A stretch of 63,927 nt of DNA, the filler included, from Candidatus Methanoxibalbensis ujae (GTDB lineage Archaea; Halobacteriota; Syntropharchaeia; Alkanophagales; Methanospirareceae): the NCBI GenBank assembly GCA_026134085.1. It is 4 parts of 4 records of this genome, joined end to end, with 100 filler letters (N's around TTAATTAATTAA, not from the genome) between each part and the next. Parts side by side here need not be neighbours in the genome. Positions count along the whole stretch, not along the records: positions 20,374 to 40,212 come from JAOQIN010000034.1; 3 more parts are not named here. The stretch is one strand, 5' to 3'. Shown here piece after piece: positions 21,351-37,206 of the stretch (within the stretch, counting starts at the first letter, position 1; every line of letters starts with the position of its first letter). Below the pieces are notes generated by a model. That model was not told the DNA's origin and made no database searches. It worked only from the letters and a program-made list of their open reading frames with translations. The position numbers and the translations under genes are program-made.

Positions 21351-21356
21351 TGAGAA

Positions 21357-21644: not shown

Positions 21645-21655
21645 GGTGATGTGAA

Positions 21656-22294
21656 GTGGCGAGAAAGAAAGGAATAAAGGAGGTTTTAGATGAAATTCTG
21701 GCAGAAGAGGCAAAGGTGGATATAAGTGATTTAACGGAGGAAGAAACGGAAGAAGAAACGGAGGAAGAAGCGGAAGAAGAAACGGAGGAAGAAACGAGGA
21801 AAGAGGAAAGTATAGTGCTTAAAAGGAGATCGCAGCGAGAGTATAACGGAGAAGCCGATAAAAATAGGATTGATGAGTATAACGGAAAAACTGATGAAGA
21901 AACTGAGGAAGAAGATGAAGGCATTGAACTTGAGGTTAGAGATGGTAGGGAGTTGGAAGACGGACTTTATGAAGCAGTGTTGAAGGCAGTTGAACTCATA
22001 CATACGAGATTCGGAGAAGCATTGAGGTGGGTCTTTGAACTCACAGATGAAGGAGTGGAAGGTGTAAATGTCACGGGACTGACTACATTGAGAGTATCAC
22101 GGCTGTCAAAAGCGGGAAAGTGGATTGAGTCGTTGGAGAAAGGAGCGCTAAATGGGTCAAGGAAGATAAACACGAGAAAGTTGATCGGCAAGAAGTGCAT
22201 CGTTGAGATAATGATGCGTGAAACAGAATATGGAGTGAAGCTGGCAAACGTAGTAGATGTTAAACCAGTGAGACATTCGCAAGTGAGGAGGTGA
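21656..22294 (+). CDS. acidic N-terminus plus DUF669-like OB-fold, putative ssDNA-binding protein
   Basis: E/T-rich repeats, then LEDGLYEAVL...LRWVFEL...KLIGKKCIVEI...ANVVDVKP, the pattern of DUF669-type phage proteins. Confidence 0.6.
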   Translation: MARKKGIKEVLDEILAEEAKVDISDLTEEETEEETEEEAEEETEEETRKEESIVLKRRSQREYNGEADKNRIDEYNGKTDEETEEEDEGIELEVRDGRELEDGLYEAVLKAVELIHTRFGEALRWVFELTDEGVEGVNVTGLTTLRVSRLSKAGKWIESLEKGALNGSRKINTRKLIGKKCIVEIMMRETEYGVKLANVVDVKPVRHSQVRR

Positions 22295-22479
22295 GCTTAA
22301 TGAAAGGAGAGAAGAAAATCGTGTCTATAAGGAAGATAGTGGGGACAGGGGTTCTACCACTGTCAAAGGAGTTAACAGAGATAAAAGTGGATGTCGGTGA
22401 TTATGTGGTGATATATAGAGATGGAGAAAGGTTAGTGATAGAAAAGCTGGAGCTTAAAAATGGAGGGAGGGAGGAGTAA
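22291..22479 (+). CDS. AbrB/SpoVT-type DNA-binding protein
   Basis: IRKIVGTGVLPLSKE...VDVGDYVVIYRDGERLVIEK swapped-hairpin pattern. Confidence 0.7.
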   Translation: MSLMKGEKKIVSIRKIVGTGVLPLSKELTEIKVDVGDYVVIYRDGERLVIEKLELKNGGREE

Positions 22480-22499
22480 TCCTCCCTCATATTTTTTTC
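22467..22499 (+). terminator. hairpin plus T-tract
   Basis: GAGGGAGGA-GTAA-TCCTCCCTC followed by ATATTTTTTT. Confidence 0.45.
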
Positions 22500-22530
22500 A
22501 ATTGTAATATTGAGAGGAGGTGAGAGAGAT

Positions 22531-23574
22531 ATGGATAATGATGTTGTATTATATCTTATAAATATATCTCTATGCACTCCTTCATTAAAAATACATTATG
22601 ATAAAATTAAGGTGCGTGGTGCGTTAAACATATACATTGATGCACCGATCTCGTTTGGGAAATCAACAATAATAAGAGAGATTGAGGCAAATAATCTATG
22701 TGTCGTCATTAGAGAGCTTACGCCTGCATCAGTGCTTGGCACAATAAAGAGGGATGGAACATTCCTTGCAGGAGTAGTTGAGAAGTTTAACAATAATAGT
22801 GTTATAATTGATGAGTTTCAATCAGTGAGGAAGGATGTAAAGGAGATATTATTGGGCTTGATGGAGGAATCCAAATATGAGAAGGCACTTGCTTATCATG
22901 TTACATATCCTTATCGTTCTGATTGTGTGACTGTGGATAAAAATTTTATAAAGGTAAAGGTGAATTCATCATTTATCGTTACGAGTATGCTCTCAAACAA
23001 AACTCAATTACTCAGTGCGATTATATCAAGATGCTTACCTCTATTTGTATATGACAGACGAGTTGATGTCTTTGAGAAGTTTTTATATCCATCTTCTGTC
23101 ATTGACTCAGGCAATATTAAGGTTGGAGAGATTGAAAGAGCAAGGAAAGAGTTAAAGGATGTATATGTTAATAGAAATGAAAGAGCTCTCGTTATAAGTT
23201 CTTTTATCAATTCAAATATACCGCAGAGTTATATGTTGAGAGCCATGAATGATTTTGTTCGTGTTTGTGTTGTAGAATCATTTATGAGAGGATATAATGA
23301 GATAACAAGAGATATTGTTGAGGATTTAAAATTTGTGGTTAAGATTCAGGAGATGGGTTATCAGTTTTCTCATATGTCAAGAGCATCATTGATGCTTTAT
23401 TCTTTAATATGTAAAGCAGAGAAGGATGAAGACGGACTTGTGTCAGTTGATTATCTGTGTAAAAAAATGAATAAAACAGATAGATATATCAGAGCATTGA
23501 TCAGTGAGTTAAAACAGAACTCTATGATTACTGTTGTCACAAAAAGAAAGAAGAAGTATGTTCGTCCGTTGTGA
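22531..23574 (+). CDS. AAA+ ATPase, MCM-like putative helicase with C-terminal winged HTH
   Basis: Walker A APISFGKS, TPASVLGT, Walker B VIIDEF, Arg-finger-like AIISRC, and a C-terminal wHTH-like segment. Confidence 0.65.
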   Translation: MDNDVVLYLINISLCTPSLKIHYDKIKVRGALNIYIDAPISFGKSTIIREIEANNLCVVIRELTPASVLGTIKRDGTFLAGVVEKFNNNSVIIDEFQSVRKDVKEILLGLMEESKYEKALAYHVTYPYRSDCVTVDKNFIKVKVNSSFIVTSMLSNKTQLLSAIISRCLPLFVYDRRVDVFEKFLYPSSVIDSGNIKVGEIERARKELKDVYVNRNERALVISSFINSNIPQSYMLRAMNDFVRVCVVESFMRGYNEITRDIVEDLKFVVKIQEMGYQFSHMSRASLMLYSLICKAEKDEDGLVSVDYLCKKMNKTDRYIRALISELKQNSMITVVTKRKKKYVRPL

Positions 23575-23608
23575 TTAAAAATGTGATTAAAAAGGAGGTG
23601 ATGTCAAA

Positions 23609-24790
23609 GTGGATTATCACAAAATAAAGTTAAGAATGCTCGGACTGACTGAGGAGGAGTTTCAGATATTGCCGAGATTTGAACGAGTTGAGAGATTGAA
23701 TCGTCTGATGTCAGACCTCGCGGAGACTGAAGTAAGTATAAATGATGAAATAAGGAGGATAGAACGCGAATTAAGGGAAAAGAGAAGAGCCTATGAGAGA
23801 ATAATATCTGCAAGAGCAAGACTGAGAGCAAGACTGAGACATGTAAGGCGATTGAGGATAAGATTTGATATAATATATGCAGAATACAGAAGAGCACTGG
23901 GAAGAGTTGGCTCATACACAAGACTGCTGAACATAGCAATAAGAAGAGGATGGAGGGAGAGAGAAGAAAGATATAGAGAGTTACTGTTGAGGGCAAGAGA
24001 AGAATTACAAAGAATATCAGAACGATTAATTGATGTATCAGCAAGGATAAGAGCACATCCGCCTGTTGAAGAAATTGAAAGACGAATGAGGTCATGGGAG
24101 AGTGTTCTATCAAGAATAAGAGATGAGATTGAAAGAGAAACGAATGAGTTGGAATTAATGAGATCAAGAATAACAATTATAAGAGGAGTTACTGGTGACA
24201 TATTGAAGGAGATTGAGATACCTGTAACAATACTTCACAGATATACCACATTTGAAATAACAATACATGCAGGAATACAGTATGAGTCAGCGAAGAGAGG
24301 CAGTGATATAGATGTGGACATATTTGTAACATTTAGACTGAGGACATTAATTCCTCAGCATAGGGAGATGGACATTGACACATTTATAAGAGATATATCT
24401 GATATACTGACGAATAGTTCATGTCGTTTAATCAGTCTTTGTCATAATATGACTTATTTCGTTCTGCCGATTGAATCAGATATAAGATGTTCAATTATTG
24501 ATGTTGAGGTGCAAAGAGATGAAGTAAAAGATGTCACATTGAGGTATGTTGAAAAAGAAATGATGGACATATCAAGAGTATTGGAGGAGGAGTTAAGAGA
24601 TGAAATGAATTTGGTTGTGCTCCAGGTAAGATACTGGAGATGTAATACTATGGGGGAGGAGAAATCAAGGAACACTTATGCTGAGATAAATATGCTGAGA
24701 TGTATGGAGCAGAATTCTGATATAATTCTTGATGAGGTAAAGGAGAAGGTGAAGAGAGATGAACTGGCAATATTGAGTGAGGAGGTGTAA
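23609..24790 (+). CDS. Arg/Glu-rich coiled-coil protein with C-terminal alpha/beta domain
   Basis: GGAGGTGA RBS. The N-terminal ~190 aa are heptad-like and R/E-rich. Confidence 0.75.
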   Translation: MDYHKIKLRMLGLTEEEFQILPRFERVERLNRLMSDLAETEVSINDEIRRIERELREKRRAYERIISARARLRARLRHVRRLRIRFDIIYAEYRRALGRVGSYTRLLNIAIRRGWREREERYRELLLRAREELQRISERLIDVSARIRAHPPVEEIERRMRSWESVLSRIRDEIERETNELELMRSRITIIRGVTGDILKEIEIPVTILHRYTTFEITIHAGIQYESAKRGSDIDVDIFVTFRLRTLIPQHREMDIDTFIRDISDILTNSSCRLISLCHNMTYFVLPIESDIRCSIIDVEVQRDEVKDVTLRYVEKEMMDISRVLEEELRDEMNLVVLQVRYWRCNTMGEEKSRNTYAEINMLRCMEQNSDIILDEVKEKVKRDELAILSEEV

Positions 24791-24794
24791 GAGA

Positions 24795-25283
24795 ATGAGT
24801 AAGAGAATAAATGAGTATGACATCAAAGTGGATTTGGATATAAGCAAATGTGAAGGTGATGTGGTGAAAACAGCTGAAGAAATATGCAGGAGGATGTATT
24901 TCATTGAGATATATACTCCAGTCAGATTTGGTGATATTAAGGTATATGAGACAAAAAGGGGATTCCACTTATATATTGATCTGAAGGAACCTGCTTATTT
25001 GAAGAAGAATAAAGCATTTATAGTCATCCTTCAGTTATTGCTCATGTCTGACTGGAAGAGAGAAGTGTTTAACCTCTCAAGAGTTATGAGTATGTTCTTT
25101 TTGAATGTGGAATATGAGAACTGGAATATACTCTTTTACTGTAAGAGAGACACCAAAGGAAATTACTCAATAGAAAGGAGGACTTATCTCTCAATTATGT
25201 TTGAGAAGATATTACAGAATTACGAGAAAATAGGTGAGACAATTTTTGATCAAAATGAGAAGGAGGTGATAATAGACAAATGA
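24795..25283 (+). CDS. small AEP-superfamily (primase-like) protein
   Basis: DxD (VDLD), ETKRGFHLYI (motif II-like) and a later D (MSDW). GGAGGTG RBS before ATG 24795. Confidence 0.5.
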   Translation: MSKRINEYDIKVDLDISKCEGDVVKTAEEICRRMYFIEIYTPVRFGDIKVYETKRGFHLYIDLKEPAYLKKNKAFIVILQLLLMSDWKREVFNLSRVMSMFFLNVEYENWNILFYCKRDTKGNYSIERRTYLSIMFEKILQNYEKIGETIFDQNEKEVIIDK

Positions 25284-26041
25284 ATTATGAGATAGAGAGA
25301 GGAGATAACTTTGTGCTGATAAAGGGAGATTTCTTTGAGATAATGGATGAGTTAAGAGATAATCTAAGAGGGAAGGTGGGAGCAGTTATAACTGATCCGC
25401 CTTATGGAAGAGCACAATACTCTAATAAGTTCAATAAGTATTTAATACCTCTATCAGATGATAAGAGGAGGAAGTTTGTGGAGTTTGTAAGTGATGTTTT
25501 GATGAGTAGAAGTTATGCTTTCGTGTGCACAAACTGTTTTGAGTATGCCAAATATGTTATTGATTTTGAAAGGAGAGGTTTTGAACTCTATGGAGATGTG
25601 GTAATAGTATATGGGCAAGGTGCTCCTAAGAAATATAGGTTAAGGGATTCTCATGAACATTTACTGATTTTCACGAGAGATATAAGGAAGGATGTGGACA
25701 TAAACTCATTTAAAAATGTCTATCATACAATAAGAGCAAGAGGAATAAACAGATGTCATCCTGTTGAATTCAAAAATGCTCCATATGAGAAAATAGGGGT
25801 CACAGTTAAACCTCTTATGCTTCTCAGGAAAATAGTGAGGACATTCACTCGGCAGAATGAACTGATAGTAGATATGTTTGCTGGGAGTGCTTCAATCGGA
25901 GAGAGTGCATTATTGGAAGGAAGACGATATTTGGGAGTAGAGATAAGAGATTATGTGTTTGAGTTTGCACTTGAGCGATTGAGGAAGGTGGAACGAGATA
26001 TAAAAGAGCAGAGGGTTATTTTTTATAATTATAAAAAATAA
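25280..26041 (+). CDS. N4-C/N6-A DNA methyltransferase (beta class)
   Basis: ITDPPY precedes TVKP and VDMFAGSAS...EGRRYLGVEI. Confidence 0.9.
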   Translation: MNYEIERGDNFVLIKGDFFEIMDELRDNLRGKVGAVITDPPYGRAQYSNKFNKYLIPLSDDKRRKFVEFVSDVLMSRSYAFVCTNCFEYAKYVIDFERRGFELYGDVVIVYGQGAPKKYRLRDSHEHLLIFTRDIRKDVDINSFKNVYHTIRARGINRCHPVEFKNAPYEKIGVTVKPLMLLRKIVRTFTRQNELIVDMFAGSASIGESALLEGRRYLGVEIRDYVFEFALERLRKVERDIKEQRVIFYNYKK

Positions 26042-26345
26042 GAATTTTTGAAAAGCGGAACAAAAATCACGGACATGTGTATATACACATGTCTGCGGAA
26101 GTTGTTCCGTTTTTCAATTTTTCTTATTTTGTATAATCATAAAAAAGCGGAATTTTTGAAAAACGGAACAAAAAGCACGGGAATGTGTATATACACATGT
26201 CTGCGGAAGTTGTTCCGTTTTTCAATTTTTCTTTGTTTTTATGATTATAAAAAAACGGAAATCTTTAAAAGCGGAACAAAAATCACGGACATGTGTATAT
26301 ACACATGTCTGCGGAAGTTGTTCCGTTTTTAAAAATTATAAAAAA
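26019..26345. repeat. three 108-bp palindromic repeats built from 54-bp arms in alternating orientation
   Basis: Core (GAC)ATGTGTATATACACAT(GTC) centred at 26082/3, 26190/1 and 26298/9, alternating with TTTTATAATTATAAAA-type palindromes. Confidence 0.95.
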
Positions 26346-26378
26346 TAAGGAAAAATAAAAAGATAGGGGGGAGTATGC

Positions 26379-26660
26379 TTACTCCTTATTTATGCTCTCC
26401 CTCATCTCCTTAGAAGAGCTCTCTGTTGACTTGATTGATACCTCTGCAATGTATGAAGATGGCTGTTCAAAGATAAATCGTTCCTTTGACTCAGAGAAGA
26501 GGGAGGATATGACTCCTGCTGTGATACCTGATATTAATAGGAGTATGTTTTTTGCGTATTCTGCCTGAGCAGGTGCTGTCAATACTGCGATAAGTGAGCA
26601 TACTGTTATAATTGAGAGGAGGGAGAGCATGACATATGCAGCAGCAGTCTGTGCCTTCAT
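26379..26660 (-). CDS. viral small membrane protein (2 TM)
   Basis: Two hydrophobic segments, GGAGGTGA RBS. Confidence 0.7.
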   Translation of the reverse strand: MKAQTAAAYVMLSLLSIITVCSLIAVLTAPAQAEYAKNILLLISGITAGVISSLFSESKERFIFEQPSSYIAEVSIKSTESSSKEMRESINKE

Positions 26661-26664
26661 TATA

Positions 26665-26847
26665 TCACCTCCCTTTCACTCTTCCTTTTGGTATATTATT
26701 GTTTTTCCTCATATATAAGAATGTCGGGATAATTACTCCCAAAATGGAGAATGCGAGGAAGTGATAAAAAGAGAATCGTGTAGAGAGGAGGAGTATTATA
26801 AGGATTGTGTGATTGAGTATAATTATGTTCTTCATGTCTCTGAGCAT
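26665..26847 (-). CDS. viral small membrane protein
   Basis: Hydrophobic. The frame stays open upstream to an RBS near 26970, so the start may be earlier and non-ATG. Confidence 0.55.
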   Translation of the reverse strand: MLRDMKNIIILNHTILIILLLSTRFSFYHFLAFSILGVIIPTFLYMRKNNNIPKGRVKGR

Positions 26848-26975
26848 TGAGTGAATTGAAATGATGTAATAGAGTGTGGTATCACTCTGATATGGAGTGC
26901 TCTCTGGAGGTGGTTTATCGCTTCTGTCGTCTGCCTCATTATAAGTGTTGTGCGCGATGAGTATATCACCTCCTT

Positions 26976-27461
26976 TTAGTCAATATAAGGAATTAATCCC
27001 GCTCTTCGTCTTCTATATCGTGGAGTGTATTGAGGAGTGTATCGTGGAGTGTATCGTGGAGTATATCTCAGAGAATAAGAGCATCTTACGAGCATTGATT
27101 TGAGCATTGATATTATGGTAGAAATCTCATCACATAAGTCATATCTGTTGATCTCACATAATGTGCGTTGAGTATCTAATGCATGGTTTATAAGTTCTCT
27201 TATTGCGCTTTCACATAGATATTGAGAATCTGGTATTGTTGTCCTTTCAGGTGCTGGCAGTGGAGGTAGTTCCTCACTCAGTTCTTCTCCATATCCTTCC
27301 TCGTCAATGTAAGTAAGCTCCTCTTCACCTTCTTCTTCTTCTCTGTATTCAGGAATTTCTTCAGCTATTTCCTCAGGGATTTCTTCAGGTCTTTCCTCCG
27401 AAAGAAGTGAAGATAAGATTGCTCTTGTCATACTGTTGACTAATGCGTCCTCATTCATCAT
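26976..27461 (-). CDS. acidic protein with Cys-flanked helical hairpin and (RYTP)n basic tail
   Basis: EEIPEE repeats, LCES...DLCDEI...VRC, and RYTPRYTPRYTPQYTPRYRRRR. Confidence 0.75.
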   Translation of the reverse strand: MMNEDALVNSMTRAILSSLLSEERPEEIPEEIAEEIPEYREEEEGEEELTYIDEEGYGEELSEELPPLPAPERTTIPDSQYLCESAIRELINHALDTQRTLCEINRYDLCDEISTIISMLKSMLVRCSYSLRYTPRYTPRYTPQYTPRYRRRRAGLIPYID

Positions 27462-27464
27462 ACA

Positions 27465-27776
27465 TCACCTCCTCCTTCTTTTGTGTGATTTATTGGGTTT
27501 GTATAAATATAAATATTTTCCTTTGAGTGTGAAGGTAATACGATGAACAATCTCAATGGATAAATCAAGATATAATGAGAGAATGGAGTTGTCGGCAGAT
27601 GATATTGAGTGAGTATGCTTTGATAGATAGTGGGATAAGAGGGATATAAGGGATAATATTTCAGCATCTTTCATCCTTCTGGGATTTATGTCACCCTTGC
27701 TCTTTATTGAGAGGATTATATTGTTCTCGCTATCATGAGGGATTGAGGAGGATTTCCATATTTTTGGCTGTATCAT
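27465..27776 (-). CDS. viral hypothetical protein
   Basis: GGAGGTGA RBS, fits the operon. Confidence 0.6.
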   Translation of the reverse strand: MIQPKIWKSSSIPHDSENNIILSIKSKGDINPRRMKDAEILSLISLLSHYLSKHTHSISSADNSILSLYLDLSIEIVHRITFTLKGKYLYLYKPNKSHKRRRR

Positions 27777-27794
27777 TTGAATGCGGTCACCTCC

Positions 27795-28466
27795 TTATGA
27801 CATATACCATCTTATATATTCATCCGCAAACTGAGGAGGTATTGTCTCAAGTGTTTCTGGTATTAACTCTTCAGGGAATGTGCTTGATTCAATAAGGGAT
27901 ACTCTGAAACATCTCTCCCTGAATTCATTGCCCAATACTTCAACCTTTTCAGCATATCTCTCTGCTTCTTCTGAAAAGGTTATATATGCTGATTCATCAC
28001 CTCTCTCCCTGGCGATTAAAGCTTTCTTCATTGTAATTAAGTGCTTCTTATAATTTGCACTTATCTCAGAAATCATCCTTTTGCATATGTGAGTGAGAGG
28101 TCTTAACTTCTCATAATATATGGCTGCTTTATCTCTACTTTCAACACATATAACGCCAATGCCATCTATCTGATGAAACTGGTATGAGTAAATGAGGTCA
28201 ATTAATGATGCAAAAGGATTAACAATATGTGTGTGCCATAATGCATAATGAAGGTCAGGCTCATACTCCACATGTTCAAGATTTACTCTTGTTGCTTCTC
28301 CCTCTTCAAATGATATGTATAAAATATCTCCAGTTGAGGGGTCTATTGCACATATCCAGCAGTGCTGTGCACTTGATAATATTGAACGAATATATAAACC
28401 GAATGTTGTAAGTCTTTCTGTTACGCATATCTCTTTTAATGAGGTGTATGCATACTGCTTTGACAT
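27795..28466 (-). CDS. JAB/MPN-like domain protein (paralog 1)
   Basis: ALWHTHIVNPFASLID (HxH-x6-S-x2-D), DGIGVI, YYE. Confidence 0.6.
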   Translation of the reverse strand: MSKQYAYTSLKEICVTERLTTFGLYIRSILSSAQHCWICAIDPSTGDILYISFEEGEATRVNLEHVEYEPDLHYALWHTHIVNPFASLIDLIYSYQFHQIDGIGVICVESRDKAAIYYEKLRPLTHICKRMISEISANYKKHLITMKKALIARERGDESAYITFSEEAERYAEKVEVLGNEFRERCFRVSLIESSTFPEELIPETLETIPPQFADEYIRWYMS

Positions 28467-28467
28467 A

Positions 28468-29157
28468 TCAGTATATCACCTCCTCTCTCATTATCTTTAT
28501 AAGTGTTCTCCTTAATAAATGAGATGGGAAAGAGGCAGTCTCCTCAAATGCCTTATATATACATCCTTCCGCATGAGTAAATAATTTGTTCTTATATTCA
28601 AATAATAATTTGGACATCTCAGTTTTTAACTTATCAGCTTCATCATATCTCCCTTGCTGTATGAGTGTATCTATTTCATCCTTTAATCTCAATATGTTGA
28701 GCATTTCTTTTCTCATTAACTGGGAGATTTTTATACATTTCGGGAAGATTTCATAATATTCTGCTTTTACTCCTTCATTTGAAAGATATATAACACCAAT
28801 ACCATCAAGATTAAAAATTGCCTTCTCAAGGAGGAACGCCTTATCAATTGAGGATATACTGTCTTCAAACATAATGGATTCAGAATCATTGTGAATGTGA
28901 CCATAGATGTGAGTATGCCATAACGCTTTAATTCCATAATCCATAAAGAAGGAATCAGGTATTTCAACATAGTCTATTGTGCCTCTTATAATTTTGAACT
29001 CTGTGATAAAGTCATCAATTAAACGATATGCGAAACCAATTTCTCTTTCTTCTATATATGACTGAAAGTATATTCCCAATACTGTAACTCCAAGTCTTGT
29101 GGTTAAATCATATAATGTTCTATATGCAATATCAACAGACATCATTATCACCTTCAT
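28468..29157 (-). CDS. JAB/MPN-like domain protein (paralog 2)
   Basis: EREIG...ALWHTH...ISSID, DGIGVI, YYE. Confidence 0.6.
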   Translation of the reverse strand: MKVIMMSVDIAYRTLYDLTTRLGVTVLGIYFQSYIEEREIGFAYRLIDDFITEFKIIRGTIDYVEIPDSFFMDYGIKALWHTHIYGHIHNDSESIMFEDSISSIDKAFLLEKAIFNLDGIGVIYLSNEGVKAEYYEIFPKCIKISQLMRKEMLNILRLKDEIDTLIQQGRYDEADKLKTEMSKLLFEYKNKLFTHAEGCIYKAFEETASFPSHLLRRTLIKIMREEVIY

Positions 29158-29163
29158 TTCTTA

Positions 29164-29934
29164 TCATATCTCACTATGTATTACAGGACGGCATTGCTCA
29201 GATGCTCTATACCTCAACACAATCTTCATACATTGGCGAGATGCAGTCCTCAGTTTGTCTATGTAAGTTGTTGTCAACGATGATAGTCTTCTCATATGCT
29301 CATCCAATCTTTCAGAATATCTTGAAGCGAGTTCAATAATCCCTTCTTCTCTCGCTATTCGTATGTGTGCTCTCAATGATTTAATGTGATCAGCAATATC
29401 ACAGAGTTCATCATTAAGTTCCTTTAACTCCTTAATGATAGTTTCACATCTGACTTTTGTCTCATCAATGATTACACTTCTTTTTGGTCTGTATTCATAA
29501 TATTGAGCAACAATTGTCTCTTCTGTTACAGGAAATGATTGAGGAGAAATTATTGCGATACCATCTAAACCAAACATAACTCTCTCCAGAGCATACATTA
29601 GAGAGATGGTGGACATTCTCCATACATGAGGGTCTATTATAATCAGAACTTTCGGTCCTGGTGCATCATACGCTTCATGAGGAATATAAAGAGTTATCCT
29701 TTCACCAAAACGAGCATAATCACTTGCAATTGGTGTCGCATAAGTGGGAGTTGCTCTGTATAAATGAGCACTTTTAATGCTTGATGCCTGATGAAAACGC
29801 CATATCGCATAAAACGGTCTATATGATATGTCATCAAAATGAGTCAGATAAAAGTCCCATGCATACTCATCAATCTGTCTTATAAAATCCCTGCAGAATC
29901 TCTTTAACGCTACATCGCCAATCTCCTTACTCAT
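29164..29934 (-). CDS. degenerate JAB-like paralog 3
   Basis: LIIIDP replaces WHTH. Retains LDGIAII, YYE and the Cys-flanked hairpin. Confidence 0.55.
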   Translation of the reverse strand: MSKEIGDVALKRFCRDFIRQIDEYAWDFYLTHFDDISYRPFYAIWRFHQASSIKSAHLYRATPTYATPIASDYARFGERITLYIPHEAYDAPGPKVLIIIDPHVWRMSTISLMYALERVMFGLDGIAIISPQSFPVTEETIVAQYYEYRPKRSVIIDETKVRCETIIKELKELNDELCDIADHIKSLRAHIRIAREEGIIELASRYSERLDEHMRRLSSLTTTYIDKLRTASRQCMKIVLRYRASEQCRPVIHSEI

Positions 29935-29949
29935 TCATAATTCAACCTC

Positions 29950-30744
29950 CTATATTCTCTGTAATGTCATCCCCTCTATTCTCCACTCCTCTCTACATTG
30001 ATATCCTGCCCTATACCTCAGCACGACCTTCATACATTCACGAGACGCAGTCCTCAATCTGTTTATATAAACTGTTGTCAGCGATGATAGTCTTCTCATT
30101 AACGCATCCCTCATCGCTCTGAAATGTTCAGCAATTTCAATATCACCTTCCTCTATTGAGACACTCTCCTCTCTACTATATACTGCTATCGCATCAAGTA
30201 TATCACATAACTCAGTTTTAAGTGCTTCAAGCTCTTCAATGAATGATTCACATCTCACTGTAAATCCATTTACTCTTACAGTTTTTGTTGGACTGTATTC
30301 GTAATACTGTGCGATTATTGTGTCTTCTGTTACAGGATAAGATTGAGGAGCAATTATCCCTATTCCGTCTAAACCTAAACTGACTCTCTCTAGAGCATAC
30401 ATCAGAGAGATTGTGGGCATAGTGCGTGTTCGTGGATCAATTATTATTAAAACTTTGCTCCCTGGAAGTTCAAAATATTCTTGCGGTATATGTAGAGTTA
30501 TCCTCTCACCGAGTCGTGCATAATCACTTACAAAATCAGTTACATCACCATCCTCCACAATATATAAGTGAGCACTCTTAATGTCCATTTCAGCATGAAA
30601 CTGCCATATTGCATAAAAAGGCATAAATAACACAGTATCAGTATGCTGTTGATAGAATTCCTCATATTGATGACGAAATGCGATCTCTGTTATTAAGTTA
30701 TTACAGAATCTCTCCATAGCTATATGTCCGATCTCTTTACTCAT
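29950..30744 (-). CDS. degenerate JAB-like paralog 4 (close paralog of 29164-29934)
   Basis: Shares MSKEIG, PFYAIW, IKSAHLY, SDYAR, TISLMYALERV and MRRLSSLTT with paralog 3. Confidence 0.55.
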   Translation of the reverse strand: MSKEIGHIAMERFCNNLITEIAFRHQYEEFYQQHTDTVLFMPFYAIWQFHAEMDIKSAHLYIVEDGDVTDFVSDYARLGERITLHIPQEYFELPGSKVLIIIDPRTRTMPTISLMYALERVSLGLDGIGIIAPQSYPVTEDTIIAQYYEYSPTKTVRVNGFTVRCESFIEELEALKTELCDILDAIAVYSREESVSIEEGDIEIAEHFRAMRDALMRRLSSLTTVYINRLRTASRECMKVVLRYRAGYQCREEWRIEGMTLQRI

Positions 30745-30760
30745 TCATAAAATCACCTCT

Positions 30761-31900
30761 TTATGTGCGTTCAACCACTTTTAACTCACTCTTATCTGTC
30801 ATCAATGATATATTATCAGGTTTACTTCCTGCCTTCTCATCACCTCCCTCTTTTATCTTATATTCCATCTTCAGTATATGAGATAATCCAAACGCATTAA
30901 ATAGAGACTTCAATGCAGATATGACAAATGACTGATTCTTCTCCTGCCTTTTTATTGAGTCCTTACTCATCCTTATGTATTGCTCTCTGCTTAACTGTAA
31001 TACTGATAAGACCTTGTCAACAAACTCATTCACAGAGTAATCATACCACATCCACATTAACGCAGTATGTGGTCTTGTTCCTCTGTGTTCCGCTTTCACC
31101 TTTATTGAGCCTGTGTTGATGTAACATGGTAAGTCTGTAACAACAGTCGGAAGTCCTATATATTCCGATTCATATACTGGCATATTTACTCCGTCTCCGT
31201 GAGATGCTGATATTAGATATTTGGAGGATGCATATATTGAGTATAACTCATTGTGATGGAGTGTAAACTCCTGGTAAAAATCAATATTGACCTTTCCTCT
31301 TGCTCTCTTTAAAACACTCGGTAAAATTGACGGTCTCCGTGTGCTTATTACACATATACTTATTTGAGAGTCAATGCTTTTGGTTATCTCATTAATGAGA
31401 GGAGATAAGACTGATATTCCCTTTCTGTCAAGTGGGTCATATGCTCCCAGCATAATGATGTCATATCTGAATACTCCATTTGATATGTTCAAGTCATGAA
31501 TTGCTCTATATCTTGTCAATTCAGGAGATAATGCTCTTGGCACTATACCAGAAATTGATGCTCCCAGTTCATCTGACCATTGTTTTAAGACATTCTCTGA
31601 GAATGGAGATGCGACCCATATTACATCATAATTAAAGTCAGTGTTCTTGATGTAAATATCCCTTACACGACGAGTTGGTATGCAGAAGTCATCAAACCAC
31701 AGTAATTGAGCTCTTGTCCTCTTCTCAAGGAAGGCTGATGATGAATCCGTTAATATGTTAAACTTGTCATTCTCATAGTGATTCGCGAGTGAAATTTCTG
31801 CGTTTGTTATTGATGTTAAAAGAGAGTATGTGTGCTTTGATGCATAATGGATTGAATGCTCTTCTGGAGTCTTATATGGGAATATGTTTATTCCACTCAT
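30761..31900 (-). CDS. glycosyltransferase, GT-B/GT4-like
   Basis: DRKG and SHGDGVNMPVYESEYIGLPTVVTD (GT4 ExFG...EA-like motif). Confidence 0.75.
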   Translation of the reverse strand: MSGINIFPYKTPEEHSIHYASKHTYSLLTSITNAEISLANHYENDKFNILTDSSSAFLEKRTRAQLLWFDDFCIPTRRVRDIYIKNTDFNYDVIWVASPFSENVLKQWSDELGASISGIVPRALSPELTRYRAIHDLNISNGVFRYDIIMLGAYDPLDRKGISVLSPLINEITKSIDSQISICVISTRRPSILPSVLKRARGKVNIDFYQEFTLHHNELYSIYASSKYLISASHGDGVNMPVYESEYIGLPTVVTDLPCYINTGSIKVKAEHRGTRPHTALMWMWYDYSVNEFVDKVLSVLQLSREQYIRMSKDSIKRQEKNQSFVISALKSLFNAFGLSHILKMEYKIKEGGDEKAGSKPDNISLMTDKSELKVVERT

Positions 31901-31917
31901 CTGTGAAGTGCACCTCC

Positions 31918-32550
31918 TTATGCAGTCACTTTAAACTTGTATTCTGCAGTTATTGTGTCATATTGCTCCAGTGTTGTGTCTGATATTCTGTCTCTGGCTA
32001 TCATAAAATCATGATCACCAGTGCCATGTCTTGATAGAACTGTAAATCCCACTTCCCTCACTGTTATAGGGTCAGTATGCTTGTTTTCCGCAGATTTCGT
32101 TGCAGTGAAGTATGCTGTATTTCCGTCTATTATAACCTGTGAGTATGTGCCTGCGTAATAATAGAGTTGTCCAGATGATGTCCCATGTGGTATATGATTC
32201 TCAAAACCATAGTCAGATGCTTCAACACCTTTGAATCCTGAACCGAAGCATATACCATATTGGTGTCTTCCTTCTTCAGTATGCCAGTATGCATTGAGAA
32301 ATCTACTGTTATCTGCATCAACAGTTCTATTAGCCCCTCCCCAATCCTTTATGCAGCATGAATCGCGAGCTGGATAATCTTTACCCATCTGCTTGAAATG
32401 AGCAAGCATCGCTATGATGAATGACCTTGATTTACCACTGTAAATTATCTCTGTGTCACCATTCCTCCTTCTCACTATCACTCTTAAATCAGCACCTATC
32501 ATGTCCTTATTTCCATCCTTCCATATCCTCTTATTAATATTATCTCTCAT
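31918..32550 (-). CDS. putative virion structural protein (beta-rich paralog A)
   Basis: YGICFGSG...SDYGFENHIPHGTSSGQLYY...ITVREVG...MIARD. Confidence 0.65.
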   Translation of the reverse strand: MRDNINKRIWKDGNKDMIGADLRVIVRRRNGDTEIIYSGKSRSFIIAMLAHFKQMGKDYPARDSCCIKDWGGANRTVDADNSRFLNAYWHTEEGRHQYGICFGSGFKGVEASDYGFENHIPHGTSSGQLYYYAGTYSQVIIDGNTAYFTATKSAENKHTDPITVREVGFTVLSRHGTGDHDFMIARDRISDTTLEQYDTITAEYKFKVTA

Positions 32551-32582
32551 GTGTGTTCAATCACCTCCCTCATTCACATATT

Positions 32583-33191
32583 CTATACTTCTATCCAGAA
32601 TAAAACCTCCACTTCTATTGTGCGACCTGCCTGTATCGTCAGAGGAGCTGTTAATACATCTCTCAATATCATTACTGTGTAATCCGTGTCATCACTGTAT
32701 CCATATTTTACAGCATATATTCCGACTTCATTTGCAGTTATATCTGATGTGGTTCTGTTTTCAATTATCCTCTTAACAGGCCACTCAACTTTCATCGGAG
32801 ATACTATGAAGTCATCAAATTTATCCTTTTCTCCTACAATATGACGACCATACCACAGTTTTCCAGATTCCTCACCATGTTCAATTATTGACTCAAGCTT
32901 ATAGTCTGTCACTGAAACTGGAGTCGTTCCTGTCCCCAATACAATACCTCTTAACTCCTCTTCTCCATCCCACCACCATTCAAGGTATGGATGATCGCAA
33001 CGAGTATCTGGAGCATCTATCTCTGTCCCATCTATTGTCTTCAGTGTATCATGTCCTGTCTCAGTGTTGAACTGTGATACTAATGACGCTCTCATCATCC
33101 TCAGAAAATTGTCCACTAAGGAGTTCAATGGTTCATCTCTTATACAATGTCCTCTCTCATATATCCGTAATCTCCCCTTCACATCACTCAC
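32583..33191 (-). CDS. putative virion structural protein (beta-rich paralog B)
   Basis: GIVLGTGTTPVSVTDYKLESIIEHG...ITANEVG...MILRD. Confidence 0.65.
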   Translation of the reverse strand: MSDVKGRLRIYERGHCIRDEPLNSLVDNFLRMMRASLVSQFNTETGHDTLKTIDGTEIDAPDTRCDHPYLEWWWDGEEELRGIVLGTGTTPVSVTDYKLESIIEHGEESGKLWYGRHIVGEKDKFDDFIVSPMKVEWPVKRIIENRTTSDITANEVGIYAVKYGYSDDTDYTVMILRDVLTAPLTIQAGRTIEVEVLFWIEV

Positions 33192-34347
33192 CTCCTGTTT
33201 CTATTTCAGATTCATCTCTTATATATCCTTCACCATATATGTGGAATCCTACCTTATATGATGGGAGTTCCTCCTCCATCAAAACACATTCAGACATACT
33301 CAAACTCATATATGGCAATTCCACCTCTCTCTTTATATCAGCTTCCGTTTTAACCTTTATCTCATCAAATATCTCATGCTTATCTTTAAATCCTGAAATA
33401 CTCGCTCCATCTCTCAACTTAACCTTCATATCCACATAACCATGAACTATCTCAACATTTACACTCTCATCACTTACATTATCAACACATGTTGAGTATT
33501 CTCCCAACACATCAAGTTTAATCTCCGACATAACTTCATCATAAACAGGATGCGTATATGATAACCTGCACCAGTCCGATATATGTCCTTCTCCATATAT
33601 ATGGAATCCTACCTTATATGATGGGAGTTCCTCCTCCAATAATAGAGTTTCATACATACTCAAACTCATATATGGTAACTCAAGCTCCTTCTCACATTCA
33701 TGCACTGTTCTTATTCTTATCTCATCAAATATCTCATGCTTATCCTTTAATCCTGAAAGACTCGCTCCATCTCTCAAATACTCCTCCTGATATATATGAC
33801 CATGAACAATATACCTGTATGAGTATTCATCATCAATATATGATGTTCCTCTCATTTTTATCAATATCTCAACACTTGATGTCGTTGTATCTTTAATCTT
33901 ATCTATTATACCAATTGACTGTGGAGCAACATACTCATATGATGTTGTATCCTTAACTTTATCAATAATACTTATATGTTGTGCCGATATATACTGCATA
34001 ACTAACTCATGCTTTACTCTATCAGTGCTCTCAATAGATTTTGACTCAACAGTTATAAATGATAAAGCGTCATCCACCTTATTTATGCTCTCAATTGAGT
34101 GAGATTCAACAGTCCTCATTGTGATGTCTTCATCAATATCTTCCTCACTTTTTACACTTCCCCATGCGATTAACTTTGTTTTATCTTTCAATGATTCTGA
34201 TATGACAATAGACCTGTCAATAGCTCTTGCTGCATGTGCCAATATAAATGCGAAACCACCATATACTGATGCTATCTCATTCATCAGTCCATATATTGAT
34301 GAATATCCTTCCAGAAACTCTATCGTGGCTGGCTCATCAAATATCAC
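33184..34347 (-). CDS. putative structural/fibre protein with internal repeats
   Basis: A ~63-aa unit is duplicated (DNA 33227-33417 and 33587-33777), plus four ~20-aa S-I-x-x-D-K-V repeats. Confidence 0.7.
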   Translation of the reverse strand: MIFDEPATIEFLEGYSSIYGLMNEIASVYGGFAFILAHAARAIDRSIVISESLKDKTKLIAWGSVKSEEDIDEDITMRTVESHSIESINKVDDALSFITVESKSIESTDRVKHELVMQYISAQHISIIDKVKDTTSYEYVAPQSIGIIDKIKDTTTSSVEILIKMRGTSYIDDEYSYRYIVHGHIYQEEYLRDGASLSGLKDKHEIFDEIRIRTVHECEKELELPYMSLSMYETLLLEEELPSYKVGFHIYGEGHISDWCRLSYTHPVYDEVMSEIKLDVLGEYSTCVDNVSDESVNVEIVHGYVDMKVKLRDGASISGFKDKHEIFDEIKVKTEADIKREVELPYMSLSMSECVLMEEELPSYKVGFHIYGEGYIRDESEIETGGE

Positions 34348-34372
34348 TTACTTAATCACCTCCCTTTTATTC

Positions 34373-34759
34373 TTATTCCACTATCATCTCCACTTTATCC
34401 TTCACACCATCTCCATATATAATCCTTTCATTTCTCACAGTCTCAATTATGACAATATCCCTCATCAGATTAAGTGATATTGCAGACATATTCCTCTTCA
34501 CGATATTATAACTCTTATCAAATAATCTCGTCCATCTCTTGACCTTATACCATATTGTTGAACCTCTCGTCGTCTCTATTACTCTAATTGAAGGTGAACC
34601 TCTTAACGATGATCCCTTAAACCCAACTGTCATACCAACAGGAGGTGGCTCTGGTCTTGCTTCTATTACAGGCATCGTCAATAGAGGTATCTCAATAGGA
34701 GGTATCGTCATCCTGCTTACATATACTATCTCCTTCTCCTCATCTCCATTATCACTCAT
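34373..34759 (-). CDS. viral hypothetical protein
   Basis: GAGGTGA RBS, Pro-rich N-terminal part. Confidence 0.7.
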   Translation of the reverse strand: MSDNGDEEKEIVYVSRMTIPPIEIPLLTMPVIEARPEPPPVGMTVGFKGSSLRGSPSIRVIETTRGSTIWYKVKRWTRLFDKSYNIVKRNMSAISLNLMRDIVIIETVRNERIIYGDGVKDKVEMIVE

Positions 34760-34773
34760 TTAATATCACCTCT

Positions 34774-36024
34774 TTATGCTATCTCAAAGACAGCTTCATC
34801 ATTTATTGATTCCTCATCATGAATGTATGCATTCTCCACAGTTTCCAACTCCACAGATACTCCAATACTCTGCTCAGTCTCATATTGAGGAGATGTTATT
34901 GAATGTATGACACTCAATCCTCTTATATCACTTTCACCTTCTATCCTCGCTGGCAACATAACTGATAACATAGAGTTATCTGTGAGCTCATTTAATATTA
35001 AGACTTTAATTCCACTTTCAATCTTGAGCATTCCTTCATCTCTGACACCACTCACAATATCCTGCTTAGGTTTAAACAGTCTAAATTCTGAAGTGGTAGC
35101 TGGGAATGACTCCAACCGTCTTGGAATGTTCCTTATCTGAGTGAATGAAGGTGCTTCTCCGACACTCATCTGAGGTAATCCTAATGGCATTAAGAATGAT
35201 AACGCTTTTGTCTTAGGAGTTTCAATTATCCTGTCAATTATTTCAGCAACAGCATAACTGACTATCGGCAAGGCAATACATCCTCCCATTATCCCCAACA
35301 GTTTAGTGATGTCAAATCCATTTGACATCACATCTGGCAGTCTCTTTAATAATGATGCTGTCGCAGGTATGGTGACTGCTGCTATAAACATATTCTTAAA
35401 CTTATGTCTCAAATCCTCAAATAACTGAGTTATTTGCACATTAAACTGAGATATAAAGTCCTCAGCTATACTACATAATGCGTTCCACATTCCTTCAAAT
35501 ACTGATGCGAGCCATGTGAATATTGATGATAGTGCTCCTATTAACCAGTTTAATCCATTAACAATAGATGTATATATCCACTCACCGAATGAGTATATAG
35601 CCTCACCTATAACTGATAACGCAGAACCTATCCACTGTAATCCTCCCCATAACCACTCACCGAATCCGAGAAATGCATTCCACAACCACTCACCGAATCC
35701 TGCAATTGCCTTACCAATTTCACACAGACCATTCCACAACCACTCACCGACTGCCGACAATCCCTTATACATCCACTCAAAGGCTGAATAAACCCAAGAG
35801 CCAAATGTCTCCAATGCTGAAGCGATTGCTGATATTGCATTTCCCAGATACTCACCGAGAGATGATAATCCCTTATAAATCCATTCAAATGCACTGACTA
35901 AGAAATCTCCGAGTGCTGTGAGACCATCTAATATCGCTGAAAAAGCTTCATCTATCCATGACCCCAATGTGTCAAATGCTCCCTGTAATGCTTCAAATAT
36001 CGCTTCAAATATGTCCTCAAACAT
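34774..36024 (-). CDS. Trp-repeat amphipathic helical protein (tape-measure-like pattern) with TM segments
   Basis: Repeated GEWLW/GSWVY/FEWIY units at about 11- and 18-residue spacing. Confidence 0.7.
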   Translation of the reverse strand: MFEDIFEAIFEALQGAFDTLGSWIDEAFSAILDGLTALGDFLVSAFEWIYKGLSSLGEYLGNAISAIASALETFGSWVYSAFEWMYKGLSAVGEWLWNGLCEIGKAIAGFGEWLWNAFLGFGEWLWGGLQWIGSALSVIGEAIYSFGEWIYTSIVNGLNWLIGALSSIFTWLASVFEGMWNALCSIAEDFISQFNVQITQLFEDLRHKFKNMFIAAVTIPATASLLKRLPDVMSNGFDITKLLGIMGGCIALPIVSYAVAEIIDRIIETPKTKALSFLMPLGLPQMSVGEAPSFTQIRNIPRRLESFPATTSEFRLFKPKQDIVSGVRDEGMLKIESGIKVLILNELTDNSMLSVMLPARIEGESDIRGLSVIHSITSPQYETEQSIGVSVELETVENAYIHDEESINDEAVFEIA

Positions 36025-36047
36025 TTCTCCCTTCTCTTATATTATTA

Positions 36048-36254
36048 TCAGACGATCTGTATCATTATTTTAACTCCTCCATTCTCACACTTCACTGTTG
36101 TGGCTTTCTTGAGGTCATCTGGCGAATCCCTAACGAGTATATCTCTCAAATCTGACTCTGGTATGAATATCTCAAGTATATTTCCATTTACATTAACTCT
36201 TGCATTTGGCGTCAGTCCTTTTATTGATGAGAGTAATGGCATTATCTCAATCAC
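36048..36254 (-). CDS. viral hypothetical protein
   Basis: Short ORF with GGAGGTGA RBS. Confidence 0.65.
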   Translation of the reverse strand: MIEIMPLLSSIKGLTPNARVNVNGNILEIFIPESDLRDILVRDSPDDLKKATTVKCENGGVKIMIQIV

Positions 36255-36346
36255 CTCCTTTTTATCATCCTATTAACCACTATCATACATAAAAAGGATA
36301 TCCCACCCATCCCTCCTCCTCCCTTCATCAACCTTCCACTACTTCT

Positions 36347-36574
36347 TCATGACAGCATACACCACAGCATCGCTGAAAATGTGAGCATCTTAACTGGATC
36401 ATCATACCACATCACCCACAGTCTCTGTAAAAATGACTGGACATATGAGAATGCCACCTTCAAATGTGATAACACTGATGCTATCACTGAATATATCTCT
36501 GTCTTAAATGTCTCAATTGCCACTCCTATTGACTGCGCAATTCCTGTCACATCCTCTAAGTCCATTGAAAACAT
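36347..36574 (-). CDS. small amphipathic/membrane protein
   Basis: Helical and hydrophobic, in the structural operon. Confidence 0.65.
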   Translation of the reverse strand: MFSMDLEDVTGIAQSIGVAIETFKTEIYSVIASVLSHLKVAFSYVQSFLQRLWVMWYDDPVKMLTFSAMLWCMLS

Positions 36575-36585
36575 TTTCCCTCACA

Positions 36586-37206
36586 TCACGGTGGATTCAC
36601 ATATACATAGTATGTTGAAATAAGTCTCGCTCCATCTCCCACTGTAGTGGCTGCTGGAGTATCCCTCAACATCATCACATAATACTGCGAACCGCCAACA
36701 GTCACCATTATAAACCATCCCACTTCCCTGACTGTTATTGACCCTCCACTGTCATTATCAAACTTCCTCTCAAGCGTTATCTTTGCTGGTGCTCCTGAAT
36801 CTTCAGATGACTTAATCTCCGTCTCATGATATACGAGTTCACCGCTTCCCGTTCCATGATTAATCTTTGACCTCAAATTATAATCAGTCCATGTTGTTCC
36901 AGTTCCATTAGTGCCCACTATGAGACCATACTTATCCTCATTTGCAGGAGCATTTGCCCCATACTTATTGGCATCATTCTGCTCATCCCATGACACTGTT
37001 CTTGATGTTCCATCCACATCCACAACATCAAACTGTGGTTTACCTGCTATGTCATTTGCGAGAGCTGTGTTGAGCAATGAATATCCATTCTTCACAAATG
37101 AATGACACTTGTGCCACTCATCACTTATCAGTTTATCTTCTATCAGCACTCTCATCCGCAGCCATATATCAAATGATGCACCTCCAGACTGTCTTATTTT
37201 CTTCAT
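36586..37206 (-). CDS. putative virion structural protein (beta-rich paralog C)
   Basis: YGLIVGTNGT...TDYNLRSKINHGTGSGELVY...ITVREVG...MMLRD. Confidence 0.65.
   Translation of the reverse strand: MKKIRQSGGASFDIWLRMRVLIEDKLISDEWHKCHSFVKNGYSLLNTALANDIAGKPQFDVVDVDGTSRTVSWDEQNDANKYGANAPANEDKYGLIVGTNGTGTTWTDYNLRSKINHGTGSGELVYHETEIKSSEDSGAPAKITLERKFDNDSGGSITVREVGWFIMVTVGGSQYYVMMLRDTPAATTVGDGARLISTYYVYVNPP

Follow-up and report, generated by a model that had tools for sequence, protein, structure and literature searches.

A probable filamentous virus of the methane-oxidizing, deep-sea ANME-1 archaea, found in the 63,927-nucleotide window analyzed here (four parts of the assembly of Candidatus Methanoxibalbensis ujae, filler included), carries four tandem genes, J1 to J4 (Table 1), whose products are likely to have the JAB/MPN fold and to descend from zinc proteases that trim ubiquitin. 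Judged by their motifs, the array is divided into one complete copy (J2), one Glu-to-Gln copy (J1) and two metal-less copies (J3 and J4). J2 is a dispensable gene, and the other three are under purifying selection, as are their neighbor genes. The keeping of copies predicted to be inactive suggests that they serve as decoys or binders against host protein tagging, and we tentatively propose, as a possibility that falls short of a probability, that the array combines an optional deSAMPylase (J2) with three non-catalytic binders directed against host SAMP tagging.

Table 1. Features of the viral DNA, in window coordinates
Feature	Coordinates	Strand	Remarks
Viral DNA	20387..40135		Filler-delimited contig C28 (bin G000; window 20374-40212) minus artefactual ends
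Protospacer	22158..22192	+	35 nt
J1, JAB-like paralog	27795..28466	-	223 aa; conserved; Q34 / H78-x-H80-x6-S87-x2-D90
J2, accessory gene	28468..29157	-	229 aa; E34, H76-x-H78, S97, D100, numbered from Met at 29142
J3, metal-less paralog	29164..29934	-	256 aa; conserved; IIIDP...STIS replaces WHTH...SxxD
J4, metal-less paralog	29950..30744	-	264 aa; conserved; 57% identical to J3
GT4-type glycosyltransferase	30761..31900	-	Directly upstream of J4, 16 nt gap
Probable virion block (putative role)	31918..37523	-	Same direction as array
Probable major capsid protein, Adnaviria-type	38710..39141	-	Match to phrog_18994; sub-cut-off match to PF21660

The viral contig and its host

The GC content of the viral DNA is 0.38, versus about 0.46 for the host, and the tetranucleotide profile of C28 is the least host-like among all contigs over 10 kb. 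An adapter at 20387 in run X1 and a G-rich extension there in runs X3 and X4 suggest that the left end of the viral contig is a natural end of the molecule. The right end of C28 is chimeric, with 40136-40212 being DNA of host contig C48. Integration into the host was considered because C28 shares 77 nt with host contigs C48 and C49, and was rejected; these overlaps are probably chimeric, since 50 of the 172 contig ends match sequence inside another contig and since, at 40136, the host and the viral sequence each exist in an uninterrupted version.

The ~19.7-kb contig is probably a linear, Adnaviria-like filamentous virus. Its capsid protein candidate matched phrog_18994 in a PHROGs profile search (E 1.9e-7) and the PF21660 family "Filamentous archaeal viruses coat protein" at E 1.5e-4 and 22 bits, which is below the 27-bit cut-off. 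The glycosyltransferase matched PF13692 (E 7e-6) and phrog_4356 (E 5e-20), and the probable virion block, to which spike and tape-measure profiles match weakly, encodes three related proteins of 202-210 aa (mutual similarity scores of 125-152), a 416-aa amphipathic repeat protein and small membrane proteins. A promoter scan gave a result at chance level.

A CRISPR spacer ties the virus to ANME-1 archaea as host: contigs of run X1 match the protospacer and then run on both sides into the CRISPR repeat of G000, a repeat type that is present in 18 of 65 genomes of the same family and in 0 of 13 other genomes of the class. None of the 129 spacers extracted from G000 matched the virus or its sister virus L092 over the full length. 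According to the part of its description available to us (PMC9894754), the Ahmunviridae virus PBV300 shares with this virus an ANME-1 host, an Adnaviria-type capsid protein, a glycosyltransferase and a DNA methyltransferase, but differs in its size of 41.5 kb, its two capsid proteins and its rudivirus-type minor proteins, in a comparison based on the PBV300 table.

Layout and paralogy of the array

The initial annotation had described four tandem open reading frames taking up about 15% of a small viral genome, and this was borne out on the minus strand at the same positions, with 14.9% of the viral DNA measured. The motifs it listed were also found: DGI(G/A)(V/I)I and YYE are common to all four proteins, WHTH...SxxD is present in J1 and J2, LIIIDP...TISL takes its place in J3 and J4, and in each protein a Cys pair flanks a C-terminal hairpin (J1 C128/C186, J2 C136/C194, J3 C163/C235, J4 C165/C237). 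The proteins are stand-alone and without a hydrophobic segment. J2 has the lowest GC of the four genes (0.32), and its start is likely the sixth codon, at 29142, behind a GGTGA site. That the copies are paralogs was supported by comparison with 500 shuffles, in which J1-J2, J2-J3, J2-J4 and J3-J4 each gave 0/500 and J1-J3 gave 4/500; J1-J4 (39/500) is not significant alone, and J1 and J4 are linked through J2. On their sequences, J3 and J4 are the latest duplication of the array. A loose end at 30744 (runs X2-X4), which at first sight had a J-like start, was discarded as a fifth paralog; the 30-mer there lies where a cellular Cdc48-type ATPase gene begins, in two Thermococci-labelled bins without viral DNA.

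Catalytic-site state of each copy

The pattern [WFYLIV]H[ST]H.{5,20}S..D has two occurrences in the viral contig, one each in J1 and J2, and one among 2241 host open stretches of at least 150 aa, in the host's own JAMM. The metal ligands H-x-H and S-x2-D are present in order in J1 and J2 and missing from J3 and J4. The canonical E-xn-HxH-x7-S-x2-D invoked in the initial annotation was not recovered, the HxH-to-S spacing being x6 in J1 and x18 in J2, as against 7-8 in JAB segments of the host's class (29 of 31 scoreable by pattern). The 18-residue loop between HxH and SxxD in J2 could obstruct the groove for a Ubl tail, which would speak against a SAMP-directed enzyme. The Glu-to-His distance is 42 in J2 versus 46 in most JAMMs of the class.

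The upstream Glu of J2 was confirmed as E34. J1 has Q34 at the same index with no gap needed, in a register that comes from a sequence alignment at 24-29% identity and not from structure, and this Gln is found in all three J1 orthologs, P0004 and P0008 included. In JAMM enzymes, this Glu serves as the general base. Because J1 has Q34, only J2 has the full E/H/H/S/D set, and J1 is predicted to bind metal without the catalytic Glu; the previously annotated mix of active and inactive copies is supported, with one complete copy and not two. It is decidedly improbable that J1 is active as well through His35 or another Glu, in which case the array would hold an enzyme with two pseudo-enzyme partners in the manner of MPN+/MPN-, and J2 would be a second enzyme of other specificity. 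The gap-free alignment of its Gln with the general base of J2 opposes such activity, while the invariance of WHTH, S and D in 3/3 J1 orthologs would agree with it, as would the Borg active-site variants that, in the available part of PMC12660748, are still predicted to bind zinc.

Evidence for a JAB/MPN fold

In secondary-structure order, a Glu precedes the first core strand and is followed by the WHTH strand, the SxxD helix and two further strands, which we take to be the same order of elements as in the JAB topology. The top structure rows for the ESM Atlas model of J2 (pLDDT 0.75) were unnamed NCLDV and phage clusters, MuF/VG15 fusions, DUF4329 and RadC. For 5 of 10 Atlas rows the aligned part was DUF4329, RadC, NPL4 (twice) or Prok-JAB, under the naming bar, with TM-scores to the JAB/MPN-named rows of 0.44-0.48 (by query) and at most 0.55 (by target). 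For J4 the Atlas gave no usable match. The AlphaFold models of J1 and J2 had a pLDDT of 48, with the hairpin as the sole confident part in both, and Foldseek found no match for them; these blanks weigh little because the models reached only that pLDDT. Foldseek rows to 26S proteasome chains (E 0.2-0.3, TM 0.2) were too weak and were left out of the count.

Searches of Pfam, PHROGs, NCBIfam, PADLOC and PDB sequences gave no match to the array proteins. Recent capture of the array from a host JAMM was also considered and set aside, as there is no sign of it: 31 JAB segments of the class to which the host belongs show no profile similarity to the array. The JAB/MPN-like assignment of the initial annotation is likely but supported indirectly, by motif order, motif rarity and the Atlas neighbors, and not by significant profile or Foldseek matches. 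If the proteins instead formed an unrelated alpha/beta metal-binding family whose motif is a look-alike, this would explain the lack of significant sequence, profile or Foldseek matches and the non-canonical metal-motif spacing, but we regard such a family as quite improbable in view of that same motif order and rarity and of an independent Atlas model whose named neighbors are JAB/MPN families.

The Atlas neighbors also bear on what J2 might do. DUF4329 and RadC, in the nearest named class, are proposed nucleases and not Ubl peptidases (PMC3482391, in the part available), which speaks against a SAMP reading. J2 could be a Tox-JAB-2/RadC-like nuclease or host-shutoff effector that hits nucleic acid or another host target, with the dead paralogs regulating or guarding it. 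J2 has the E, H[ST]H, S and D that the same source lists for Tox-JAB-2/DUF4329, a group present in NCLDVs and phages; the top Atlas rows of J2 also favor this reading, as does the lack of similarity to the host JAMM peptidases. We nevertheless consider a nuclease improbable, since PF14220 and PF04002 were without score in a Pfam scan up to E 1, J2 is acidic (pI 5.2), and guards would be unlikely to stay selected in the J2-less virus L092. Across 151 genomes of the phylum, PF14220 gave one match, which was sub-threshold. Unlike Tox-JAB-2/DUF4329 as described in PMC3482391, the array shows no visible toxin-delivery domain, signal peptide or immunity gene, and has tandem dead paralogs.

Presence of J2 and selection on the other copies

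J2 is absent from sister virus L092, and a joint from 28483 to 29161, with J2 cleanly missing, was found in runs X2, X3 and X4; in one sample J2 was missing in about 40% of the contig depth. Such a presence/absence pattern would be typical of conflict genes. The dN/dS was 0.19 for J1 against L092, 0.16 for J3 (ortholog P0006, 83% identical) and 0.22 for J4 (ortholog P0005, 80% identical). A homolog search with J2 alone returned only J2 itself, and a search with profile A1 returned 5 proteins, all of them J1, J3, J4 or their orthologs; shorter forms gave no matches. Array homologs were found in 0 of 78 other class genomes and were absent from the viral contig collection, the GenBank phages yielded none that was significant, and the one match in the metagenome contig collection was L093, a contig apparently identical with L092.

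These results need to be weighed against a part in virion assembly or egress, in which the JAB fold would have been put to structural use and J1, J3 and J4 would join via their hairpins into a terminal structure or scaffold, with J2 as an optional maturation protease. A JAB domain acts in lambda tail assembly, the conserved copies here are the three catalytically incomplete ones, and their conserved Cys pairs could be disulfides. Furthermore, the capsid, fibre-like and glycosyltransferase genes precede the array on its own strand, with 1-21 nt between genes, but small non-structural-looking ORFs prolong the same gene run. We consider a virion role unlikely: the dN/dS of the array is above that of the membrane and repeat protein genes (0.00-0.08), and the 52-row table of the rod-shaped PBV300, in the part of that source available, has no JAB-like protein, so the array is not a morphogenetic part shared with PBV300.

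The host SAMP system and a possible anti-SAMP module

The initial annotation had pointed to Ubl and Bil systems in the host as a check. A Ubl system was found, with three free GG-ended Ubls, one E1 and one JAMM (SAMP-type genes); these are unlinked, being spread over five contigs, and the bin showed no Bil-type operon. Prok-JAB is present in 73 of 79 class genomes. An E2 search gave no match, and neither did its control. A lambda gpK/gpI-like pair would have no visible Ubl partner in the virus, because no viral ORF ends in GG. No antiviral role of archaeal SAMPylation emerged from the literature searched, apart from one that is proposed as a hypothesis in PMC12660748 (in the part available).

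In the anti-SAMP proposal, the array would be co-transcribed late in infection, J2 would be a zinc isopeptidase removing SAMP, and J1, J3 and J4, predicted to be non-catalytic, would act by binding, so as to shield or sequester either proteins that carry SAMP or the machinery that attaches it. Because viruses without J2 exist, the binding role would be essential, and catalysis an add-on of a value that differs between host strains. We further speculate, as a rather unlikely elaboration, that the three dead JAB/MPN pseudo-enzymes sponge up or shield SAMP-tagged virion proteins, possibly in MPN+/MPN- complexes, while a live deSAMPylase is swapped in and out.

Comparison with known systems

Eukaryotic MPN+/MPN- pairs (Rpn11-Rpn8, CSN5-CSN6 and BRCC36-Abraxas) join active and metal-less paralogs with C-terminal helices, and the array likewise mixes complete and metal-less paralogs with such helices; unlike those pairs, it is viral and tandem, and its complete copy is dispensable. 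Archaeal JAMM1/Prok-JAB proteins (PF14464), including the host's G000:C25, have E...HxH...SxxD in the same order at a similar Glu-to-His distance, but are about 140 aa versus 223-264 aa in the array, have a spacing of x7-8 versus x6 and x18, and show no detectable profile similarity to it.

A close parallel in description is that of the Borgs (PMC12660748, limited to the part available). Their JAMM-fold genes, a fold that is likely for the array too, resemble the array in being multicopy and clustered on a mobile element of methanotrophic archaea, in having Cys pairs at a distance from the active site and a host with SAMP and E1, and in their proposed counter-defence role. Each Borg genome has about 18 JAMM-like putative deSAMPylases, often clustered and with distant disulfides, which have been proposed as an answer to SAMP-based defence. 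The Borgs are giant Methanoperedens elements, whereas ours is a ~20-kb ANME-1 virus, and most of the 315 Borg JAMM copies keep the active site, while here three of four copies are incomplete and each has a long helical hairpin, features that set the array apart from the Borg JAMMs as described.

Implications

The contig looks like an undescribed lineage of ~20-kb filamentous viruses of ANME-1. Our literature and database searches found no precedent for a mostly dead JAB array on a small virus, and the selection on its dead copies points to a non-catalytic JAB function, which to our knowledge is known only from eukaryotic complexes. That archaeal SAMPylation acts as a defence against viruses is a proposal of the Borg paper (PMC12660748, in the part available). 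With four small soluble proteins, three SAMPs and an E1 in the same bin, and viral variants with and without J2, this proposal becomes testable. If the pseudo-enzyme elaboration given above is true, it would be evidence that housekeeping SAMPylation serves as antiviral immunity in ANME-1 and that viruses counter it mainly by non-catalytic means.

The four-gene array and its motif states

Behind a glycosyltransferase gene and probable virion genes, on one strand and with gaps of 16, 15, 21, 1 and 18 nt, contig C28 carries four tandem JAB-like paralogs (J1 to J4). As the initial annotation described, there are four ORFs that share DGI(G/A)(V/I)I and YYE, each have a Cys pair and fall into two motif states, and its estimate that about 15% of the viral DNA is devoted to the array agrees with the 14.9% calculated here. 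Its count of two copies with the metal-binding motif and two degenerate copies holds for J3 and J4, which lack the ligands, and is revised for J1, which lacks the Glu, so that only J2 is complete. Numbered from the aligned start Met, residue 34 is Glu in J2 (E34) and Gln in J1 (Q34); the three J1 orthologs all share the Gln. Taken with the motif states, this makes J2 the one complete copy, J1 a copy that has its metal ligands and lacks the Glu, and J3 and J4 copies devoid of ligands; J1, J3 and J4, predicted to be inactive, are referred to below as the dead copies. The Glu-to-Gln state of J1 resembles substrate-trap mutants of such enzymes. That J1, with its metal ligands in place and a conserved Gln at position 34, is itself active and has pseudo-enzyme partners seems unlikely to us.

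Paralogy was assessed with 500 shuffles: four of the six pairs beat all 500, J1-J3 was marginal (4/500) and J1-J4 was not significant (39/500). J3 and J4 are 57% identical, and the scores of the array proteins against 12 other C28 proteins (24-54) fell in the shuffle range.

A probable filamentous virus

In our reading C28, one of the separate contigs joined by artificial linkers in the window, covers most of the genome of a ~20-kb filamentous virus that probably belongs to the realm Adnaviria. Its GC is 0.38 versus about 0.46 for the bin, G000 (Candidatus Methanoxibalbensis ujae), its tetranucleotide profile is the least host-like among all contigs >10 kb, and profile searches identified an MCM-like ATPase, a DNA methyltransferase and a GT4 glycosyltransferase. 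At position 20387 one run carries what we take to be a sequencing adapter and two runs carry a G-rich extension, as would be seen where a linear molecule terminates. The final 77 nt of C28 are host DNA. The overlaps with host contigs do not argue for integration, since 50 of the 172 contig ends match the interiors of other contigs, which indicates that many ends in this bin are chimeric. Among the other features of C28, the ~108-nt palindromic element is a candidate origin, terminator or packaging signal.

Features of the viral contig and related host loci (window coordinates unless a host contig is named)
Feature	Coordinates	Observation
C28	20374-40212	19,839 bp
J1	27795-28466 (minus)	metal ligands, Q34
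J2	28468-29157 (minus)	complete predicted site
J3	29164-29934 (minus)	no ligands
J4	29950-30744 (minus)	no ligands
Palindromic element, about 108 nt	26016-26337	three tandem copies between two converging gene blocks; one copy retained at the internal site in the sister-virus fragment L092
Palindromic element, right	39877-40041	near right end
Palindromic element, left	20450-20483	partial, near left end
12-nt tandem repeat array	39679-39882	near right end; differs between runs
168-aa protein	24777-25283	near the MCM-like ATPase; ETKRGFHLY, which we take to resemble an AEP primase motif; 0 library matches
Second paralog family	31918-33191, 36586-37206	three mutually similar proteins of 202-210 aa, one with a weak PRD1 spike match; probable fibre or receptor-binding proteins
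387-aa protein	33184-34347	120-residue internal repeat
Variable stretches	32978-34033	parts skipped or replaced in variants in 4/4 runs
416-aa protein	34774-36024	Trp/Phe/Gly-rich amphipathic repeats, 11-residue-type; tape-measure profile matches, which composition probably explains; atypical of a filamentous virus
Filamentous archaeal virus coat protein-like	38710-39141	PF21660 E 1.5e-4 (under cut-off), phrog_18994 E 1.9e-7
L088, host fusion protein	G000:C18:3753-3950	CxxxCxxC domain, presumably radical-SAM-like; C-terminal GG-ended ubiquitin-like domain
L090, host fusion protein	G000:C60:4249-4446	same architecture

J2, the complete copy, is dispensable

The dispensable member of the array is J2. 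L092 (QMNJ01000026.1), a 14-kb fragment syntenic with C28 and matching it at 82-87% DNA identity along most of its length, has the gene order J4-J3-J1, without J2. This fragment is filed in a Coatesbacteria-labelled bacterial bin, which we infer to be mis-binning. In runs X2, X3 and X4, all from one sample, a contig with only 30 nt on each side of the joint connects 28483 to 29161, retaining the J3 stop codon and the J1 ribosome-binding site. Depths of the J2-less versus J2-bearing contigs were 8.8 versus 13.7 (X2), 16.9 versus 25.5 (X3) and 16.6 versus 20.2 (X4), the J2-less form making up 39-45% of contig depth, a figure that does not translate into a proportion of genomes. In run X1, J2 was present throughout. 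The GC of J2 (0.32 versus 0.36-0.38 for the other three) weakly favours its gain over its loss.

By Nei-Gojobori counting on one genome pair, dN/dS was 0.19 for J1, 0.16 for J3 and 0.22 for J4, inside the range of all 21 gene pairs compared (0.00-0.30), which argues that the dead copies are maintained rather than decaying. In searches dependent on shared words, relatives outside the C28 virus were confined to the orthologs in L092 and to P0004, an additional variant of J1; no homologs were found in 78 other genomes of the class or in viral collections.

Evidence for a JAB/MPN fold

The pattern [WFYLIV]H[ST]H.{5,20}S..D matched twice in C28 and in 1 of 2241 host open stretches, a real JAMM; as the pattern was written after J1 and J2 had been seen, the host count is the informative part. 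For the ESM Atlas model of J2 (pLDDT 0.75, pTM 0.74), the aligned part was DUF4329, RadC, NPL4 (twice) or Prok-JAB in five of the ten structural matches listed; of the other five, two were MuF/VG15 fusions and three were viral clusters without a name. The TM-score by query was 0.44-0.48, and every match lay under the tool's naming bar. In the Atlas feature search the scores were 0.90 for unnamed viral clusters and 0.87 for a cluster in which Prok-JAB makes up 13%. J4 had no Atlas match, and the predicted fold of J3 and J4 comes solely via paralogy. The array proteins had no matches in Pfam, PHROGs, NCBIfam, PADLOC or PDB sequences and did not resemble a profile built from 31 JAB segments of the class. 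Our own AlphaFold models (alignments of 4 and 8 rows) reached pLDDT 48, with confidence limited to the hairpin, and Foldseek found nothing with them, a blank that weighs little given model quality. We consider a JAB/MPN fold likely for the array, and an array of some other fold quite improbable. RadC stands beside NPL4 and Prok-JAB among the J2 matches, and viral Tox-JAB-2 proteins have been described, with nuclease activity argued, in PMC3482391. A Tox-JAB-2/RadC-like nuclease appears improbable here.

Host and ubiquitin-like system

Bin G000 is, as judged from sequence, an ANME-1-type archaeon, since the two best matches of a flap-endonuclease-like protein on the next contig (66% and 58%) are both in Methanophagales genomes. 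The virus is linked to this host by contigs from X1, a run that may be the source of the window: they match 22158-22192 and continue on both sides as the exact CRISPR repeat of G000, a type found, in a search within this class, in 18 of 65 same-family genomes and 0 of 13 others; the corresponding spacer was absent from the 129 extracted from G000. Further low-GC G000 contigs with atypical tetranucleotide profiles (C37, C38, C86 and others) are possibly additional mobile elements.

A host ubiquitin-like (Ubl) system, raised in the initial annotation, was found in its components and not as a locus: G000 encodes three free ThiS/MoaD-type proteins with a GG end and another two that follow a larger domain in a fusion, together with a single ThiF-family E1 and a single JAMM, in unlinked genes. 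Such free proteins, E1 and JAMM are the usual archaeal SAMP set. An E2 search was empty and uninformative.

Possible role of the array

We tentatively propose, as the most probable of several readings, that the array is a counter-defence against host SAMP tagging. J2 would strip SAMP, with J1, J3 and J4 binding to SAMP conjugates or to the enzymes of tagging, probably late in infection and around virion proteins; the steps from JAB fold to SAMP substrate are putative. Such a counter-defence would account for three things: the array lies behind virion genes, its dead copies are retained, and J2 comes and goes. A structural role of the array in the virion is rather unlikely. The underlying logic comes from bacteria, in which a system described in 10.1101/2023.09.04.556158 attaches a Ubl to the tail fibre of a phage.

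According to PMC12660748, 17 Borgs encode 315 JAMM-fold proteins, mostly with intact sites, often clustered and with disulfides; SAMP binding is predicted for some of them, and the paper suggests that they answer a defence based on SAMP; multicopy JAMMs on a methanotroph mobile element are thus a known idea. One Borg Prok-JAB is mentioned in 10.1101/2023.08.01.549754. The available text, supplement and 52 table rows of PMC9894754 give no JAB annotation for ANME-1 viruses, the words 'JAB' and 'JAMM' are absent from the main texts of PMC12934983 and PMC13700489, and the accessible part of PMC7824862 holds no relevant passage. In the literature covered, mostly outside subscription papers, we found no report of a filamentous archaeal virus with a JAB array, or of an array made up mostly of pseudo-enzymes. 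The array is a real, selected and variable paralog set, probably JAB/MPN. Its novelty is an inversion: the copies predicted to be inactive form the core and the one predicted to be active is optional, while 15% of the viral DNA goes into the set.
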